This document shows, one piece after another, positions 1 through 62,357 of a stretch of DNA of 64,000 nucleotides. Under the pieces are notes generated by a model, which saw only the letters and a program-made list of their open reading frames with translations, was not told where the DNA came from and ran no database searches. Within the stretch, counting starts at the first letter, position 1. Every line of letters starts with the position of its first letter. This stretch comes from Escherichia coli (lineage in GTDB: Bacteria > Pseudomonadota > Gammaproteobacteria > Enterobacterales > Enterobacteriaceae), in assembly GCF_044324875.1 (NCBI RefSeq), contig NZ_CP172185.1, one strand, 5' to 3'. Position numbers and translations under genes: made by a program.

Positions 1-415
1 TTAGCCCCGCTTTATCGTGCGTCAGGAAGCCAATGCCGTCGTAATAAGTGACGCCAGTAAATGCCATTCCCATTCCTGCGTCGCGGGATGAAGTCCACGT
101 CGTATTACGGGAGAGCAAATCCACCTCTCCTGACTGTAAAGCGGTGAAACGTTCTTTTGCTGTGAGCGGGGTATATTTCACTTTCGTATCGTCACCAAAT
201 ACAGCTGCCGCAACACCACGACAAACATCTACATCAATACCTGAAAACTTACCGTCTGCATCGGCATAAGAGAACCCAGGTAATCCATCACTGATCCCGC
301 ATTGCACAAAACCTTTCTTCTGTACGGCATCAAGCGTCGCGCCAGCATGCGCCTGATTTGCAACGGCAAGCAGCACGCTGGCGGCAGCCAGTGTGGCTAT
401 CATCATCTTTTTCAT
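1..415 (-). CDS. yhdW: Amino-acid ABC transporter periplasmic binding protein, 5' portion (gene runs off window start)
   Basis: Minus-strand frame open from ATG at 415-413 to position 1 with no stop (I translated it by hand: MKKMMIATLAAASVLLAVANQAHAGATLDAVQKKGFVQCGISDG...). Signal-peptide-like N-terminus; matches recollection of YhdW downstream of acrEF-yhdV. Not in ORF track because truncated. Confidence 0.8.
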   Translation of the reverse strand, partial: MKKMMIATLAAASVLLAVANQAHAGATLDAVQKKGFVQCGISDGLPGFSYADADGKFSGIDVDVCRGVAAAVFGDDTKVKYTPLTAKERFTALQSGEVDLLSRNTTWTSSRDAGMGMAFTGVTYYDGIGFLTHDKAGL

Positions 416-845
416 AATGCTTCCTGTGAGGCGAAAATTATCGTTATAGGACGTTTGGGAAACGTCTTTTACCTGTCTGTGGCCATCCTCTTATAAGCAA
501 AAGTAGTGCCAGCTTTTGCGCACGATTTCGCGTCGCAATAAGCTGAGTGTAGACAGGAAATAATAAAAACAGCGCCCCGCAATGGTGCTAAAATGAAACA
601 TGCGCCACATTTTGGCGCAAAATATTTACGCGTTTTTTACTAAGCAGAATAATGATTGTTAGCGTGAGTATATTTCTGGTAGGAAGTGTGAAAATTAAAT
701 TGATGCGTTATTTCGAAAGCAGCGAAATAACGCGATATAACATGCTAAATCAGCAGGGAATTACCCAGCAGAATATAGCAATATTTTATCTTATGGAGAG
801 ATACTGTATCGTTAAACAGAGTGCGGTACTCCGCGCCCTGTGCAG

Positions 846-1067
846 TTATTTCGACAGAGCGATGATCCCCATCGTCAGGCCAGCAACAGCTGCTGCCCCG
901 CCAGCAATAGCCCCAGCCGTTTCCCAGTTATCCTGAGTCGTGCCTTTCATACAGGTATTAGTGTGAACCAGTCGACCCTGATCGTCATAAACCGGAACGC
1001 AGGGCGAATCGTGAGCACAGCCCGCCAGCAATGCGGTGAGCAATGCCACAGGAATTAATCTTTTCAT
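846..1067 (-). CDS. yhdV: Small lipoprotein YhdV
   Basis: ORF track 846..1067 (73 aa) MKRLIPVALLTALLAGCAHD...; lipobox LAGC; position downstream of acrF as in K-12. Confidence 0.85.
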   Translation of the reverse strand: MKRLIPVALLTALLAGCAHDSPCVPVYDDQGRLVHTNTCMKGTTQDNWETAGAIAGGAAAVAGLTMGIIALSK

Positions 1068-1280
1068 AGTGTTACCTCAGTAATAAACGCTAACGCTTAA
1101 TAAGTTAACTCTCTTATTAACGAGCTGAATGCCATTTTATCACCGAAGGTTATAAATCTTGCGGAATGAATAATGACAAATTATGTGAATTGTAAAAATA
1201 GTGAAGGGAGCGGGAACTATAGAAAGTTTTTAAAGAGTGAGAAGAAGAATATCTTATTAATTTTTATGGGTTTCACTGAA

Positions 1281-1308
1281 AATAATAAAGGCACCCGAAA
1301 GTGCCTTT
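1281..1308 (-). terminator. Intrinsic terminator downstream of acrF
   Basis: Hairpin aaaggcac-ccgaaa-gtgccttt (1287-1308); on the minus strand the stem is followed by a T-rich run (plus-strand aataataa 1281-1288). Confidence 0.6.
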
Positions 1309-1319
1309 ATGTTTCTGAT

Positions 1320-4300
1320 TTATCCTTTAAAGCAACGGCGGATCACCACAAAGAACACTGGCACGAAGAAGATTGCCAGCAACGTTGCAGAAACCATCCC
1401 GCCCATTACCCCGATACCCACTGCGTTCTGCGCGCCACTGCCGGCACCGTTACTGATAGCTAGCGGTAATACGCCGAGAATAAAGGCGAGAGAGGTCATC
1501 AGGATAGGACGCAGACGCATACGTACTGCCATTAGTGTCGCTTCAACAACACCTTTACCCTCTTTCTCCATGAGATCTTTAGCGAACTCAACAATCAATA
1601 TAGCGTTTTTAGCCGACAAGCCAATTGTCGTTAGCAAGCCCACCATAAAGTAGACGTCATTTTTTTGATTAAAGAGTGTCGCCGCCAGTAGCACGCCGAC
1701 AATCCCTAACGGCACGACCAACATAACCGAGACAGGAATTGACCAGCTTTCATAGAGTGCAGCAAGGCACAGGAAAACAACCACAAAGGAAATTGCTACC
1801 AGAGCGGGAGCCTGGTTTCCCGATAAGCGTTCCTGATATGACATACCCGTCCAGTCATAACCAATGCCAGCTGGTAATTGTGATGCAAGGTTTTCCATCA
1901 ACGCCATGGCATCGCCGGAACTGGTTCCTGGCGCGGCTTCCCCCTGAATCTCCATTGACGGCAGACCGTTGTAGCGCTCCAGTCGCGGAGAGCCATACAC
2001 CCAATGTGCAGTGGTAAAGGCCGAGAATGGTACCATTTCGCCGTTGGCGCTGCGGACATAAAGTTTATGGACATCTTCTGGCAGCATACGGAATTTGGCA
2101 TCCGCCTGAACATACACCTTTTTCACGCGACCACGGTCAATGAAGTCGTTAACGTAAGTCCCACCCAACGCCGTTGAAATGGTCTGATTGATGTCAGAAA
2201 GTGAAACACCTAATGCCTGCGCCTTTTCCTGGTCAACTTCCAGTTTAAACTGCGCGGTGTCTTCCAGACCATTAGGACGCACGCTGACTAAGCTGGCAGG
2301 ATGTTGCGCCGCCATACAAAGCAACTGGTTACGGGCCTGGGTTAGGGCATCGTGACCCAGCCCAGCCTGATCAATTAACTCAAAGTCGAAACCCGTTGCC
2401 GTGCCCAGTTCAACAATGGCTGGCATATTGAATGGAATGACAAAACCGTCGCGGATCTTGCCCAATTCCATTTTGGCACGATGGATTACTGCTTCCGCAC
2501 TGTTTTCGTCACCACTACGCTCTTCCCACGGTTTCAGACTGACGAAGGCCATACCGGCGTTTTGTGCCTGGCCGCTGAAGCTAAAGCCGTTAACCGTAAA
2601 GACACTTTCAACGTTCGCTTTTTCGTTCTTCAGATAGTAATCCGTCACTTGATCCAACACTTTTTGCGTCCGCTCTTGCGTCGCGCCAGCGGGTAACTGA
2701 ATCATGGTCAGAAAGACACCCTGATCCTCTTCAGGTAAGAAGGAAGACGGAAGGCGTAAAAACAACACCACCATTCCTGCAACAATCAGCGCATAGATCA
2801 GTAAATATCGTCCTGTGGAACCGAGGATTTTGCCGACGCTGTTGGTGTAGTGGTTAACGCTATGATCGAAGGTGGTATTAAACCAGCCGAAGAAACCGCC
2901 CTTATTTTCGTGATGCTCAGCAGAGACGGGTTTGAGCAGTGTTGCACATAACGCTGGGGTAAGAATCAATGCCACCAGAACAGAAAGCGCCATTGCCGAA
3001 ACGATGGTGATAGAGAACTGGCGGTAAATTGCCCCAGTAGAACCGCCGAAGAATGCCATTGGAATAAATACCGCTGACAGCACCATCGCGATACCCACCA
3101 GTGCGCCCTGGATTTGCGACATTGATTTTTCCGTCGCTTCTTTTGGCGGGAGCTTATCCTCCATCATCACGCGCTCGACGTTCTCCACCACCACTATCGC
3201 ATCATCGACGAGCAGCCCGATGGCAAGCACCATCCCGAACATCGTTAGTGTATTGATGGAGTAACCAAAAGCGGCGAGGATGGCAAACGTCCCTAACAAC
3301 ACTACGGGTACCGCAATGGTGGGGATCAGCGTTGCTCGCATATTCTGCAAGAACAGATACATCACCAGGAACACCAGCATAATGGCTTCGAACAGCGTTT
3401 TTACCACTTCGTGAATAGAAAGCTGGACGAATGGCGTGGTGTCATAAGGGTAGAGAACCTTCATTCCCTGTGGGAAGAATGGCTGTAATTCCGCCAGTTT
3501 TGCCTTAATGGCTTTCGCGGTATCGAGAGCATTCGCGCCGGTTGCCAGCTTAATACCCAGGCCCGCCGCCGGTTTTCCGTTGATGCGAGCGATAACGTTA
3601 TAGTTTTCACCGCCAAGTTCAACCCGTGCGACATCTTTCAGGCGTACCACCGAGCCGTCACTGTTTACGCGCAGGGTCACTTTGCCGAATTCTTCCGGAT
3701 TTTTTAACCGCGTTTGAGCAATAATCGAGGCATTCAACTGTTGCCCTGGTAACGCTGGCGTTCCGCCCAACTGTCCGGCAGCGATCTGGTCGTTCTGTAC
3801 CCTTAACTGGTTAATCACATCAACCGGCGTCAATTTATATTTGTTTAGCAGATCGGCGTCCAACCAGATACGCATCGCATACTGTGCGCCGAAAAGTTGT
3901 ACGTCACCGACGCCATTCAGACGGCTAAGCGTATCTTTAACGTTAGAGGCCACATAGTCCGAGATATCGTCCTGTGTGGTGCCTGGGTTATCAGAGACAA
4001 AGCCCGCCACCATCAAATAGCTGCTACTGGACTTTTCAACACTGATCCCCTGCTGCTGTACCTCCTGCGGCAGCAACGGCGTGGCGAGCTGGAGTTTGTT
4101 CTGCACCTGCACTTGCGCGATATCTGGATCGGTCCCAGACTGGAAGGTAAGGGTAATTGTCACGCTACCGGCGGAATCGCTGGTGGAGGACATATACATC
4201 AGGTTATCGATACCGTTCATATTCTGTTCGATAACCTGCGTCACCGTATCCTGCACGGTCTGCGCATCAGCGCCCGGATAGTTTGCTGAAACAGAAACCG

Positions 4301-4424
4301 CAGGCGGTGCAATGGTTGGGTATTGGGCGACGGGCAATTGTAGGATCGCCAGTGCGCCCGCCATCATCAGAATAATGGCCAGCACCCATGCAAATATCGG
4401 TCGTCGAATAAAAAAGTTTGCCAT
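1320..4424 (-). CDS. acrF: RND multidrug efflux permease AcrF
   Basis: ORF track 1320..4424 (1034 aa) [23 protein letters not shown]...; AcrB/AcrF family 12-TM transporter; length matches AcrF. Confidence 0.96.
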
Positions 4425-4435
4425 GTCAGATTGCC

Positions 4436-5593
4436 TTACTTCGATGCAGAATCTGCGGGGGTATCGGTAGTGGCTTTAACCTGCTCTCCCGGACGCGCTT
4501 TTTGCAGGCCGCTGACAATGACTTGATCGCCAGATTTCAGACCTTCGCTAATCAACCATTTATCGCCAATCGCCTGACTGGCAACGACAGGGCGCGCTTC
4601 CACCTGACTTTTATCGTTAACAATCAGCACGGTTGCATCACCACGCGGTGTGCGGCTAACGCCTTGTTGCGGGATAAGAATGGCGTCAGGTTGGACGCCT
4701 TCATCAATCCGTGCACGCACAAACATACCCGGCAAAAGCGTATGTTGCGGGTTAGGGAAGACAGCACGTAGGGTTATGGAGCCGGTGCTTTCATCAACGG
4801 TCACATCAGAGAATTGCAGCGTACCTTTCAGGGGATAGGTTTGACCGTTTTCCATGACCAACTCTACGTTGCTGGTGGCGTTTTCCTTATGCAAATTTCC
4901 TTGCTCTACGGATTGCTTCAGCCTCATAAAATCGTTGCTGGATTGGGTCACATCAACGTAGATAGGATCGAGCTGCTGGACAGTCGCCAGTTCAGTCGTT
5001 TGCCCATTAGTGACAAGAGCGCCTTCGGTCACGGTCGATTTGCCGATACGTCCGCTAATTGGCGCAGTCATTTTGGTATAAGCGAGATTGATGAGAGCGC
5101 TTTCGACCGTGGCTTTTGCGGCAATCACGGCGGCATCGGCCTGGCGAGCATCAGCAATGGCCTGGTCGTACTCCTGCTGACTGATGTATTTCGTACCCAC
5201 GAGCGGAACGTAACGTTTTACCGTCAAATGCGCGATGGCGGCGGCGGCTTCACTTTTCGCCAGTTCGCCTTTCGCGCTGTCATAACTTGCCTGATAGGTC
5301 GCGGGATCGATCTGGTACAGGGACTGGCCTGCTTGCACATCGCTGCCTTCAGTGAAATTGCGACTCAGTACGATCCCGCTAACCTGTGGGCGAACTTCGG
5401 CTATACGGTAAGCATTGGTGCGGCCTGGTAATTCAGTCTTAACTTCTAACGGGGCCGTTTTCACAATATGAACGGTAACCTGCGGTTCACCGACGTGAGC
5501 TTTCTCTTCTCCCTTATCGTTACAACCGGCGATTAAAGCCGCGGAGATCAGAATAAAGGAGGGCAGGAGGAAAAACCTGGCATGTTTCGTCAT
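4436..5593 (-). CDS. acrE: Periplasmic adaptor (membrane fusion) lipoprotein AcrE
   Basis: ORF track 4436..5593 (385 aa) [24 protein letters not shown]...; lipobox; 11 bp upstream of acrF. Confidence 0.95.
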
Positions 5594-5991
5594 TACTATT
5601 CCTCAAAAAACCAAAAGCGCGTTATTTACCCAAAAAGGCAACGCGTTAACTCGCAGAAAGAAAAATACAGTTCGCTATCCTACAAATTATCATTCGTCGA
5701 TGTAAGGAATAGTTATGAATACTGGCGTCTCAAGGCACATAAACACAAAAAAAGATTAATATTCTACTGTTTTATTTTGACGCGGGTTGAAAGAGGTAGA
5801 ATCAAATCCTCGTAAATTGAAATATATATTGATAGAGTGAATGTATTTTAGGTAAATAATAAACGTTATTTATTTGACGATTTATAGCAACTCAATATTA
5901 GCCTCTCGTATAAATATACATTAGGTGATAGATTAACCTTCGCTATTTTCTCATCCTGTGTCGAATATATTTATTTCCTGAATAATTAATC

Positions 5992-6654
5992 ATGGCAAAA
6001 AGAACCAAAGCTGAAGCCCTGAAGACCCGGCAAGAACTGATTGAAACTGCCATCGCCCAGTTTGCGCAGCGTGGCGTAAGCAAGACGACGCTCAACGACA
6101 TTGCCGACGCCGCTAACGTTACGCGTGGCGCTATCTACTGGCACTTCGAGAACAAGACCCAACTGTTTAATGAGATGTGGTTGCAACAGCCTTCATTGCG
6201 GGAGTTAATCCAGGAACACTTGACGGCTGGATTAGAGCATGACCCGTTTCAGCAATTGCGTGAAAAATTGATTGTCGGCTTGCAATATATTGCCAAAATT
6301 CCCCGCCAGCAGGCGTTGCTGAAAATCTTATATCATAAATGTGAATTTAATGATGAGATGCTGGCCGAGGGGGTAATACGCGAAAAGATGGGCTTTAATC
6401 CGCAGACTCTACGCGAAGTATTGCAGGCATGTCAGCAACAAGGTTGTGTAGCAAATAATCTCGATTTAGATGTTGTGATGATTATTATTGATGGTGCCTT
6501 CAGCGGAATTGTTCAAAACTGGTTAATGAATATGGCGGGTTATGATCTTTATAAACAAGCACCCGCACTGGTCGATAACGTATTAAGAATGTTCATGCCA
6601 GATGAAAACATAACGAAATTAATTCATCAAACGAATGAATTAAGTGTCATATAA
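5992..6654 (+). CDS. acrS: TetR-family repressor of acrEF/acrAB (AcrS/EnvR)
   Basis: ORF track 5992..6654 (220 aa) MAKRTKAEALKTRQELIETAIAQFAQRGVSKTTLNDIADAANVTRGAIYWHF (TetR HTH); divergent from acrE; ATG confirmed at 5992. Confidence 0.93.
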   Translation: MAKRTKAEALKTRQELIETAIAQFAQRGVSKTTLNDIADAANVTRGAIYWHFENKTQLFNEMWLQQPSLRELIQEHLTAGLEHDPFQQLREKLIVGLQYIAKIPRQQALLKILYHKCEFNDEMLAEGVIREKMGFNPQTLREVLQACQQQGCVANNLDLDVVMIIIDGAFSGIVQNWLMNMAGYDLYKQAPALVDNVLRMFMPDENITKLIHQTNELSVI

Positions 6655-6656
6655 AT

Positions 6657-6836
6657 TCACATTCTGTCCTGAAAATTCAGTTCGTCACAGTTAACCAGTT
6701 TTAGTGGATTAACTGAGTTCATATTGCGGCATTTGTCTGTTTCTGTTGCCAGCAGTTCAATCCACTGCATCAGTAAAGTATCAAACAGAAAAACGAAGAC
6801 AGCGAAAACGACGAGCCACCAATACTTGCGAATCAT
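6657..6836 (-). CDS. yhdU: Small membrane protein YhdU
   Basis: ORF track 6657..6863; internal Met start chosen (MIRKYWWLVVFAVFVFLFDTLLMQ..., 59 aa, hydrophobic helix); position between acrS and yhdJ as in K-12. Confidence 0.65.
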   Translation of the reverse strand: MIRKYWWLVVFAVFVFLFDTLLMQWIELLATETDKCRNMNSVNPLKLVNCDELNFQDRM

Positions 6837-6919
6837 TACCTGAGCCTGTGCATGTTTAACCAAGTCTGGCAGGAAATATACACGAAATGAATAATCTGAA
6901 AACCAGGCTTACACTTCCT

Positions 6920-7804
6920 TTACTTTGCAATGAGATCGGGGTCAACTTCGCTTAACCTGCTTCGTTTTGACAGGTTGCCGGTCTTTCTTTTTTTCACTTT
7001 CGCCAGTTCTTCCGCAGAGTAATGCGACGCGACATCCAGCCGTCGAAGCCCCATTTTGATGTACTCGCTGTTAATCTCAATACCAATGAATTTTCGCCCG
7101 CTGGCGACGGCTACGGCACCGGTAGTAAAGCTACCAGAAAACGGGTCGAGAACGATATCGCCTGGGTTGGAAGAGGCGAGAATAATGCGTTTCAGTAAGG
7201 CTTCCGGTTTTTGCGTCGGGTGATTCTCATATTCATCCATCAAATAACGCACGCGCGGAAAATCCCAGACGTTACCCGGTACTTTTTGATGATTGTAAGG
7301 CTGTGGAGGATTTTTGCGATAATCGATCAACGCGCGCTGCGATCCGGTTTTGGCTTCTACCAGAATAGCATCACCGTTGAACGTGTAGTTCTTTGCGTCT
7401 TTCACCATCATCAGGATGGGTTCGTACATGGAGCCGTAGTGTTTTTTCGCCTGCACTCCAGAACTGTCATATGACCAGACGATGCGACTTTTGATGGTAA
7501 AAAGCTTGCGGCACTGGAGATCGATAAAGGGCATGTTTTCCGTGCTGTTCATGATGTACATGCTGCCCTGCTTTTTCAGAACGCGGTGGCACTCTTCAAT
7601 CACTTCAAACAGCCAGTCGATAAACAGATCTTCTTTCCAGGCTTCGATCAGACCATCAAAATTTTTACCGATGTTATACGGTGGGTCGGCAAAGATCAGA
7701 TCGACACTTTCGGCGGGGATCTTTTTAAGTTCGGTTAATGCATCACCCTGGATGATGGTCTTTGCTTCATTACCAAATCGGGTCGGTTCACATCCTGTTC
7801 TCAT
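6920..7804 (-). CDS. yhdJ: DNA adenine (N6) methyltransferase YhdJ
   Basis: ORF track 6920..7810 (296 aa); contains DPPY motif (FADPPYNIG) and C-terminal FAGSFTTG-like SAM motif; start set at third codon (MRTGCEP...) to give 294 aa; alternative start 7810. Confidence 0.9.
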   Translation of the reverse strand: MRTGCEPTRFGNEAKTIIQGDALTELKKIPAESVDLIFADPPYNIGKNFDGLIEAWKEDLFIDWLFEVIEECHRVLKKQGSMYIMNSTENMPFIDLQCRKLFTIKSRIVWSYDSSGVQAKKHYGSMYEPILMMVKDAKNYTFNGDAILVEAKTGSQRALIDYRKNPPQPYNHQKVPGNVWDFPRVRYLMDEYENHPTQKPEALLKRIILASSNPGDIVLDPFSGSFTTGAVAVASGRKFIGIEINSEYIKMGLRRLDVASHYSAEELAKVKKRKTGNLSKRSRLSEVDPDLIAK

Positions 7805-26999: not shown

Positions 27000-27072
27000 T
27001 TTGACGAGGGCGCGTAATTGCCCCAATCTCATATGATAATCGTTGCCAAAGGCCAACGAGCCAGAACATAAC

Positions 27073-27107
27073 CGTAGGCCGGACAGGGCGTTCACGCCGC
27101 ATCCGGC
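27073..27107. repeat. REP (repetitive extragenic palindromic) element
   Basis: cgtaggccggacagggcgttcacgccgcatccggc is the reverse complement of the canonical GCCGGATGCGGCGTGAACGCC...CCGGCCTACG REP motif; lies between yhdP and tldD. Confidence 0.85.
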
Positions 27108-27139
27108 AGCCGTAAAAAATCCTCTACTGCAGTAACTAA

Positions 27140-41421: not shown

Positions 41422-41515
41422 TGGCCTAAGTCCGAATCCAGCCTCTTTTCCTTCTCACTACAGCATTATTCTCTGTAAACGGTATTTTCCTCGCACTATA
41501 GAAAAGGATATCGCG

Positions 41516-42310
41516 ATGGGATTTTTTAATACATTGTTTAATAAGAAAGAATCATTAACGCTGTCGAATAAATGGGAATTCTTTATTACCACGGTGGAAG
41601 ATAATGTAACGGGCATACGTGTAGATATTGGCGCAATTGAGGACGAAAAATTTGATCGTCTTATCCACACATGGTTTTTACGTGTCCGTTATACTGACTG
41701 TTATGAAAACGGTTTTCCGCAACCTGATGAAACACAGCGTTTAAATCGTATTGAGGACTGGCTTGAGGCGCAGGGTAAAACACTACCGATCTGGCTAGTG
41801 GGTGTGGTTACGCAACAAGGTTCACGCGATTTTGTTTTCCAGTCAGAAAAAGACCTGGACTGGGAAAAGACATTGGATAAATTGTTGGCAGGTGGCCCGG
41901 AGCTCGCTTGCAGCTTTAATGAGAGTAAAAACGACCACGGAAATTACTACCGCCAGTTTTTGTATCCAACCAAATACGACTGGAACTGGATACACGATTC
42001 CCGAGTATGCCGCGGGTTACTGGAGCATGGTGACGATTTGACTCTCCCACGCACCATCGATTATTACGCGACATTGCCGACAGAAACTGCGGCCCACGCC
42101 TTTGTGGAGGACGTGACGAAATTGCCATATGGCATCACGCTGGTGAGCATTCGGATGAACGACCAACAACCGGAGTATATGGCGTCATTGATTAACACTG
42201 ATGCTCCGGAACAATGGCATATGACCGATATCACATGCCAGCTTACCGATTTGGCGGAAAAGCATGGAGGTAGTTTTGATGGCTGGGGCGCACCGATAGC
42301 AACGGCATAA
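41516..42310 (+). CDS. Hypothetical protein, 264 aa; putative DUF695 (N-terminal) + RraB-like (C-terminal) domains; not present at this locus in K-12 as I recall it
   Basis: Long ORF 41285..42310 in track; the upstream part overlaps rpsI and its terminator, so start set at first ATG after the terminator (41516), which has an AAGGA RBS 7 bp upstream. Translation MGFFNTLFNKKESLTLSNKWEFFITTVEDNVTGIRVDIGAIED...LTDLAEKHGGSFDGWGAPIATA. Domain call is from motif resemblance by memory, not from a search. Confidence 0.8.
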   Translation: MGFFNTLFNKKESLTLSNKWEFFITTVEDNVTGIRVDIGAIEDEKFDRLIHTWFLRVRYTDCYENGFPQPDETQRLNRIEDWLEAQGKTLPIWLVGVVTQQGSRDFVFQSEKDLDWEKTLDKLLAGGPELACSFNESKNDHGNYYRQFLYPTKYDWNWIHDSRVCRGLLEHGDDLTLPRTIDYYATLPTETAAHAFVEDVTKLPYGITLVSIRMNDQQPEYMASLINTDAPEQWHMTDITCQLTDLAEKHGGSFDGWGAPIATA

Positions 42311-42578
42311 AGGTTTAAAACAACATTCCCGGTGGGGACTAAGTCAAGCATTTCAGACTAAAGCGCATCTCTTTTTCCCCATTTCCGGCATCGACTCACC
42401 ACAAAGGTCGCAAAATCTGGTAAACTATCATCCAATTTTCTGCCCAAATGTCGGGTATTGCTCATTTTTTGTTTAATTTTCGAACAAAGAGAGTCGTTCC
42501 TTACTGGGTAACACAACTTCTGACTGGCCACCTGGTGGCTGGTAGCAGTAAAAATTCTGACTATACCTGGAGGTTTTC

Positions 42579-52134: not shown

Positions 52135-52317
52135 TATCTGTCCCTTTATATGGCGCTGCGTTGAATAATGGAATCAGCTATACGCCGGGCATCTACCGGT
52201 AACAATCCAGATGTGCGTATTACATTGGTTTTCTTCAGATTATGCGAGGCGCTTTCCAGTACGAAAGGAGAATTTCAGCGCCGACTCTTTTCTGAGGAGG
52301 CGGCGCTGGGACAGAGT

Positions 52318-53748
<1,431 letters not shown>

Positions 53749-62245: not shown

Positions 62246-62357
62246 CCCCGGCTAGACCGGGGTGCGCGAATACTGCGCCAACACCAGGGAAATCTTGGCT
62301 GCGCCGTAAATTATTATGATGAGTTACAAGGGCACAGCACTGTTTTTCAGGCCGCAC
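62237..62357 (-). ncRNA. arcZ: ArcZ (SraH/RyhA) small regulatory RNA
   Basis: Reverse complement of 62237-62357 reads GTGCGGCCTGAAAAACAGTGCTGTGCCCTTGTAACTCATCATAATAATTTACGGCGCAGCCAAGATTTCCCTGGTGTTGGCGCAGTATTCGCGCACCCCGGTCTAGCCGGGGTCATTTTTT, which matches the ArcZ sequence as I recall it, including its terminator; 3' end overlaps the arcB stop codon. Confidence 0.88.

Follow-up and report, generated by a model that had tools for sequence, protein, structure and literature searches.

An intact acrEF–acrS locus with an uninterrupted divergent spacer in Escherichia coli

The AcrAB and AcrEF multidrug pumps both use TolC (PMC4462101). Expression of acrEF is very low in the laboratory, and it rises upon inactivation of hns as well as in the presence of an upstream IS element (PMC4462101, PMC6599122). 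The spacer between envR and acrE of K-12 has been flagged as bound by H-NS (PMC3946193). IS-activated acrEF alleles are known from laboratory work, and in K-12 delta-acrB strains insertions of IS1, IS2 and IS5 as well as SNPs have been selected in the zone from -86 to -163; the activating insertions are IS1 at -138, IS2 at -86/-90 and IS5 at -94/-163, and the activating SNPs are -86 G>A and -92 T>G (PMC9783932). All these positions are taken from that study and counted from the ATG of acrE. The regulator encoded beside the pump, AcrS/EnvR, has acrAB rather than acrEF as its main reported target of repression, and EnvR binding to the acrAB operator and repression activity have been reported for both E. 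coli and Salmonella (PMC9780535). A clinical ST131 strain yielded transcripts of both acrE and acrS (PMC6509150), and a Salmonella clinical isolate expressed acrEF/envR at a high level (PMC9780535), indicating that silence of this locus is not universal.

The locus described here lies in a stretch of E. coli DNA of 64,000 nucleotides, which was analysed as a whole and is called the window below. It consists of acrF (1320..4424, minus strand), encoding an RND inner-membrane permease of 1034 aa, acrE (4436..5593, minus strand), encoding a periplasmic adaptor lipoprotein of 385 aa, and acrS/envR (5992..6654, plus strand), encoding a TetR-family regulator of 220 aa. The identities and coordinates assigned to these genes by the initial annotation are correct, as the ORF list, the NCBIfam models and the RefSeq gene names beneath the best nucleotide matches (acrF, acrE and acrS) agree. 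Against the NCBIfam models, AcrF scored 1862.8 bits with TIGR00915 for the RND permease subfamily (cut-off 940; match over residues 1-1033), AcrE scored 282.7 with TIGR01730 for the RND adaptor subfamily (cut-off 94.9), and AcrS scored 433.8 bits with NF007430, the equivalog model for the regulator of the acrEF/envCD operon (cut-off 274). PF00873 is recorded for the exact AcrF protein and PF00440 (TetR_N) for AcrS.

All three genes are intact, with full-length ORFs and no internal stop in any of them. AcrF has D407, D408, K939, R970 and T977 in the expected sequence contexts; these are the proton-relay residues, which we take, by way of known motifs, to be the counterparts of AcrB D407, D408, K940, R971 and T978. 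The lipobox of AcrE, LIAGC, is intact as well. acrE adjoins acrF upstream on the same strand with a gap of only 11 bp, has a Shine-Dalgarno-like GAGGA at -11..-7 (5600..5604, minus strand), and forms with acrF a two-gene operon specifying both adaptor and RND permease for a multidrug pump that depends on TolC and is paralogous to AcrAB. The 3′ end of this operon carries a terminator-like hairpin 10 bp past the acrF stop codon (1285..1310, minus strand), in which a stem of 11 pairs precedes the minus-strand sequence TATTTTCAGT. acrS lies next to acrE in divergent orientation, and the description of an intact operon with acrS divergent from it is confirmed. When the genes are compared with those of K-12, nucleotide identities are 97.9% for acrF, 98.5% for acrE and 97.7% for acrS, with 8, 5 and 2 amino acid differences, respectively. 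The two in AcrS are H27R and M220I; the G at window position 6071, the middle base of acrS codon 27, is common to strains 042 and 118UI, both of which match the window exactly from 5992 to 6191 and therefore also have R27. The 24-bp acrAB operator of AcrR/AcrS had no match within the window at up to three mismatches.

The acrE-acrS divergent intergenic region (5594..5991) is exactly 398 bp long, as first annotated, and is free of IS sequence. Its GC content is 31.2% against 51.5% for the window, bearing out the earlier description of it as AT-rich, and the lowest values in 200-bp windows are 26-28%. On alignment to K-12 MG1655, the two spacers are equal in length and 96.2% identical, with 15 substitutions and no indels; all of the substitutions fall between 5723 and 5955, and the 129 bp adjacent to acrE are exactly the K-12 sequence. 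Indels relative to K-12 were likewise absent from acrF, acrE and acrS. By megablast, positions 1-27113 of the window align with K-12 (3,419,455-3,392,344) as a single collinear block, showing that no IS is present there, in line with the initial annotation. A 0.9-kb extra segment at 41.4-42.3 kb of the window, once suspected to be an IS, proved to be a DUF695 gene. Short inverted and direct repeats within the spacer are AT-rich, imperfect and chance-like. When 5400-6200 was scanned against Rfam at E<=1, all matches were at chance level, far under the gathering scores; across the whole window, the scan at the gathering threshold detected ArcZ only.

The zone from -86 to -163, where the known activating events occurred, corresponds to 5679..5756 on the minus strand (PMC9783932) and is uninterrupted and wild type here; the mapping of coordinates was checked with the GTAGG pentamer, which sits at -90..-86. 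Neither activating SNP is present in the window (-86 is G and -92 is T), wild-type bases occupy the published IS target sites, and none of the 15 substitutions falls on an activating position. A weak -10-like hexamer, TAGGAT, lies at -89..-84 (5677..5682, minus strand). With the known -86 G>A mutation it would read TAGAAT, suggesting that this hexamer is a candidate promoter element. Scanning the spacer with the sigma-70 consensus gave no sites against 1.7 expected in shuffled sequences, a result that fits weak promoters but is not evidence of silence. In a PWM comparison of the acrE strand, no sigma-70-like site exceeded its K-12 score.

This form of the locus is not peculiar to the strain. 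Strains 118UI and GMF054 match the spacer, along with 200 bp to its left and right, at 100% identity, the latter strain being 99.2% identical to the window over 1100-7000; a draft assembly, GCA_044080575.1, has 100% identity across window positions 1-7424; and 513 genomes carry the spacer allele at >=99% identity. The exact AcrF protein was found on 161 public E. coli contigs, and the exact protein sequences of the pump recur on 161-178. Judging from this distribution, the 15 substitutions in the spacer evidently represent a natural, common allele, and, being identical to copies in public genomes, the locus is an ordinary one. An insertion or promoter-up mutation, sought by alignment to the reference, was thus missing on four counts, namely the lack of any indel, the wild-type state of -86, -92 and the IS targets, the lack of a better sigma-70-like site, and the common natural allele.

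Gene identity and intactness, together with the absence of an IS and of any known activating change, are direct observations. As for expression, this is most probably an ordinary wild-type acrEF-acrS locus, kept low by H-NS-type silencing and weak promoters. On the basis of the K-12 and Salmonella literature, silence or weak expression of the pump is a reasonable expectation; for the source strain itself, we infer low expression and H-NS silencing. The spacer is AT-rich with a GC content far under that of the window, as would be expected of an H-NS-silenced locus. The H-NS high-affinity motif TCGATAAATT, searched with up to two mismatches, gave 88 matches window-wide and none inside the spacer. 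In the mechanism proposed by analogy with K-12 and Salmonella, H-NS-type silencing together with weak promoters would keep expression of the operon very low. The operon would then serve as a latent back-up pump, to be switched on by an inserted IS or a point mutation located some 86-250 bp upstream of acrE, typically upon loss of AcrB.

The 15 spacer differences, some of which are inside proposed promoter hexamers, mean that the behaviour of K-12 may not transfer exactly. Shimada et al. (2014, PMC3946193) predicted an acrEF promoter, TTGAGT-19-AATAAT in K-12, and an envR promoter, TTAAAA-17-TATATT in K-12. The former maps to 5865..5895 on the minus strand, where its -10 hexamer reads AATAAC, and the latter to 5802..5830 on the plus strand, where its -35 hexamer reads TCAAAT; a new -35-like hexamer, TTGACG, is created on the acrS strand at 5874. 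Since polymorphism within the locus is also highest in the centre of the spacer among the nine alleles compared, a lineage-specific allele might shift basal transcription of acrEF, acrS or both, so that regulation would be unlike that of K-12 and not simply cryptic. This is unlikely, however, because changes in candidate sites on the acrE strand are neutral or weakening with none improved, the acrE-proximal 129 bp, taken as the location of all published activating events, are the same as in K-12, and the variation, in an allele widespread among natural isolates, resembles near-neutral drift in an AT-rich region. Slightly less likely still is the stronger proposal that the D/F-type spacer allele, with TTGACG gained and both predicted promoters altered, has rewired the divergent promoters of acrS and acrEF in comparison with K-12. 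If it were true, this allele would mark a lineage with a different set-point for acrS/acrEF and, through AcrS, for acrAB, and would represent natural regulatory divergence within an H-NS-bound spacer.

Activation of acrEF in trans despite a wild-type cis region, through a defect in hns, through SdiA or other regulators, or through loss of AcrB function, has precedents in the de-repression of acrEF by hns deletion (PMC4462101, PMC6599122) and in the report of SdiA as a regulator (PMC4462101). The hns and sdiA loci, acrAB with its promoter, and tolC all lie outside the window, nothing within the window supports such activation, and trans-activating defects are generally rare among natural isolates; this explanation is accordingly very improbable. 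That the pump, still in frame, is functionally impaired by the substitutions in AcrF and AcrE that do exist relative to K-12 is hardly credible, given the conserved proton-relay residues and lipobox and the recurrence of the exact proteins in public genomes, as expected of a maintained natural allele.

An ordinary wild-type locus, probably silenced, thus remains the preferred reading. Its only practical value is that of a baseline; the strain retains an intact AcrEF. Were AcrAB to be lost or inhibited, this pump could be activated through an IS insertion or a point mutation lying some 86-250 bp upstream of acrE, a route that is well documented.

A screen of 5426 complete E. coli genomes found the same intact layout in about 96% of them. 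IS-interrupted spacers exist naturally in other genomes, with IS5 at -163/-166, IS1 at -110 or IS1 at about -240, and natural genomes with IS-activated or IS-disrupted acrEF include N1024/N779/N780, STEC346, RM9088 and Res13-Lact-PEA12-26. Laboratory alleles activated by IS were reportedly described by Kobayashi in 2001 and by Jellen-Ritter and Kern in 2001. The spacer and locus targeted in all such alleles are the same as those in the window. However, they bear IS5 at -163/-166, IS1 at -110 together with an acrS deletion, or IS1 at about -240, whereas the window has none; in another form, unlike the window, IS1 takes the place of acrS and the spacer along with the 5′ end of acrE. The AcrAB-AcrR system, the major paralogous pump locus, likewise combines a divergent TetR-family regulator gene with genes for an adaptor and an RND permease. 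AcrF scores 1965 against the AcrB equivalog (cut-off 2150) and AcrE scores 609 against the AcrA equivalog (cut-off 765), both under the cut-offs, so the two are paralogues of AcrB and AcrA and the pump is not AcrAB. In K-12 MG1655, acrEF (b3265-b3266) and envR/acrS (b3264) have the same gene order and orientation, the same 398-bp spacer length and 11-bp acrE-acrF gap, and the same flanking genes, namely yhdV and, at the opposite end, yhdU-yhdJ-fis; the amino acid differences (8 in AcrF, 5 in AcrE and 2 in AcrS) are natural polymorphisms. By synteny and near-identity, the locus is orthologous to K-12 acrEF rather than to acrAB, and represents a textbook example, already known, of a back-up efflux operon in the wild-type form that is usual for it.

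The acrEF-acrS locus belongs to the AcrEF/AcrS family by every criterion that could be tested. In the six-frame ORF list, acrF (1320..4424, minus strand, 1034 aa) and acrE (4436..5593, minus strand, 385 aa) are followed by a gap of 398 bp (5594-5991) and the divergent acrS, or envR (5992..6654, plus strand, 220 aa), and none of the three frames contains an internal stop codon. Against NCBIfam models, the 220-aa protein scores 433.8 bits with NF007430, the equivalog for the acrEF/envCD operon regulator (curated cut-off 274), and the 1034-aa and 385-aa proteins score 1862.8 with the RND permease subfamily TIGR00915 (cut-off 940) and 282.7 with the RND adaptor subfamily TIGR01730 (cut-off 94.9), respectively. 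The latter two do not reach the AcrB and AcrA equivalog cut-offs of NCBIfam, as expected because they are the paralogues AcrF and AcrE. AcrF retains D407, D408, K939, R970 and T977, corresponding to the proton relay of AcrB with a one-residue shift past position 408; AcrE carries the lipobox LIAGC, and its gene is preceded by a GAGGA ribosome-binding site. A hairpin terminator-like site followed by a T-run (1310->1285, minus strand) lies 10 bp past the acrF stop codon. Exact copies of all three proteins occur on 161-178 public E. coli contigs.

The initial annotation had described an intact acrEF operon with a divergent acrS and an AT-rich promoter region free of IS elements, and this description holds on comparison with K-12 MG1655. 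acrF (66 substitutions, 97.9% nucleotide identity, eight amino acid changes), acrE (17, 98.5%, five changes), the spacer (15, 96.2%) and acrS (15, 97.7%, two changes, H27R and M220I) are all equal in length to their K-12 counterparts, with no indels. Window 1-27113 aligns to K-12 as one collinear block, and therefore IS elements are absent in and near acrEF-acrS. The spacer has a GC content of 31.2% versus 51.5% for the window, with 200-bp minima of 26-28%.

Further along the window, the tldD-yhdP intergenic region of K-12 has a stretch of about 211 bp (3,392,133-3,392,344) that is missing or rearranged at ~27050-27113, where overlapping alignment ends suggest a repeat. Some 0.9 kb absent from K-12 lie between rpsI and sspA (41442-42335); this segment is not an IS and carries a gene whose product is annotated with a DUF695 domain. 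Used as a query, it was matched over at least 80% of its length in just 48 of the 5426 complete E. coli genomes, including IAI39, CE10 and AR_0013. At 52189-52318, gltD and yhcG are nearly adjacent, without the K-12 genes gltF-yhcA-yhcD-yhcE::IS5-yhcF (~7.1 kb) between them; most genomes (3140/5426) have this junction. The ArcZ sRNA gene (62250-62357, minus strand; Rfam RF00081, 120.8 bits) lies beside arcB, in its K-12 position as expected.

All 15 spacer substitutions fall within 5723-5955, leaving K-12-identical ends of 129 bp on the acrE side and 36 bp on the acrS side. In a panel of nine alleles, the spacer has a constant length of 398 bp, 118UI and GMF054 carry the same allele as the window, and the 46 variable columns lie almost entirely at -130 to -373 from the acrE ATG, with -1 to -129 nearly invariant. 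This pattern suggests that a constrained leader or core promoter may adjoin a freely drifting AT-rich block. The K-12 spacer is H-NS-flagged and has predicted promoters for acrEF (TTGAGT-19-AATAAT) and envR (TTAAAA-17-TATATT) (Shimada et al. 2014, PMC3946193). The corresponding window sites read TTGAGT-19-AATAAC and TCAAAT-17-TATATT; if the predicted promoters are real, both would be weaker than in K-12. A consensus scan returned no promoter-like sites in the spacer. When window and K-12 alleles were scored with an approximate sigma-70 PWM, no acrE-strand site in the window spacer exceeded K-12, and a few acrS-strand sites were altered, some upward and some downward.

In laboratory evolution of K-12 delta-acrB, acrEF was reported to be activated by IS1 at -138, by IS2 at -86/-90 with duplication of GTAGG, by IS5 at -94 and -163, and by the SNPs -92 (T>G) and -86 (G>A) (PMC9783932). 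Position -N corresponds to window 5593+N, a mapping checked by the presence of GTAGG at -90..-86, and at all of these activating positions the window is wild type. In our reading, -86 G>A may act by changing the -10-like hexamer TAGGAT (-89..-84) to TAGAAT, a better match; the authors themselves suggested altered Nac binding (PMC9783932). The comparison with a reference, proposed at the outset as a check for an insertion or promoter-up mutation, has thus revealed neither, and the locus is outside the IS- or mutation-activated class.

The genes acrE and acrF would be co-transcribed from the spacer, and their products act as adaptor and RND permease of a TolC-dependent pump, whose reported substrate range is AcrAB-like (PMC4462101). 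K-12 acrEF is expressed at a very low level and is elevated by hns inactivation or an upstream IS (PMC4462101; PMC6599122), and the main reported target of AcrS/EnvR is acrAB, with a switch between both pumps proposed (PMC9780535). Since the cis region is wild type at all positions known to matter, low acrEF expression is most likely in this strain, and the pump would be a latent, weakly expressed back-up. The wild-type cis region supports the earlier view of a cryptic pump, but 'cryptic' should be taken as 'weakly expressed', because a clinical ST131 strain was found to transcribe acrE and acrS (PMC6509150).

The locus is already known, its identical sequence is public, and it offers nothing new. 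Megablast locates 80% or more of 1100-7000 at a single place in 5193 of 5426 complete E. coli genomes, and the matched genomes share the order acrF, acrE, acrS, yhdU, yhdJ; about 4% of the 5426 are without an intact collinear acrF-acrE-acrS stretch. The top match in 64 records has only 60-80% identity and is probably the paralogous acrAB locus. With 200 bp added on each side, 80% or more of the spacer lies at a single place in 5214/5426 genomes, 513 genomes match it at 99% identity or more, and 118UI and OZ392436 match it at 100%; a spacer-region match is absent in 178. The draft assembly GCA_044080575.1 shows no difference from window 1-7424 (100.000% identity). The closest complete RefSeq E. 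coli genomes reach only 99.1% (1-25000) and 98.5% (25001-50000), so that complete genomes cover the source lineage poorly. The window alleles resemble those of strains such as 042, 118UI and IAI39, presumably of phylogroup D/F.

IS-bearing loci in other genomes were sought with a composite query, in which an acrE/acrF anchor in both orientations was combined with IS1, IS2 and IS5 so that such loci rank above intact ones. This screen for IS1, IS2 and IS5 brought up dozens of genomes with an IS inside or beside acrE, acrF or acrS. Junction mapping placed IS2 within acrF in 23CRST009, IS1 in place of acrS, the spacer and the acrE 5′ end in Res13-Lact-PEA12-26 (CP062876), IS1 at -110 with deletion of acrS and yhdU in STEC346, IS1 at about -240/-246 in RM9088, and IS5 at -163/-166 in N1024 (CP189540); N779 and N780 give match coordinates identical to N1024, pointing to the same IS5 site. 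The IS5 site of N1024, a natural isolate, is that selected in laboratory evolution (PMC9783932). The zone hit in N1024, STEC346, RM9088 and others is unbroken in the window.
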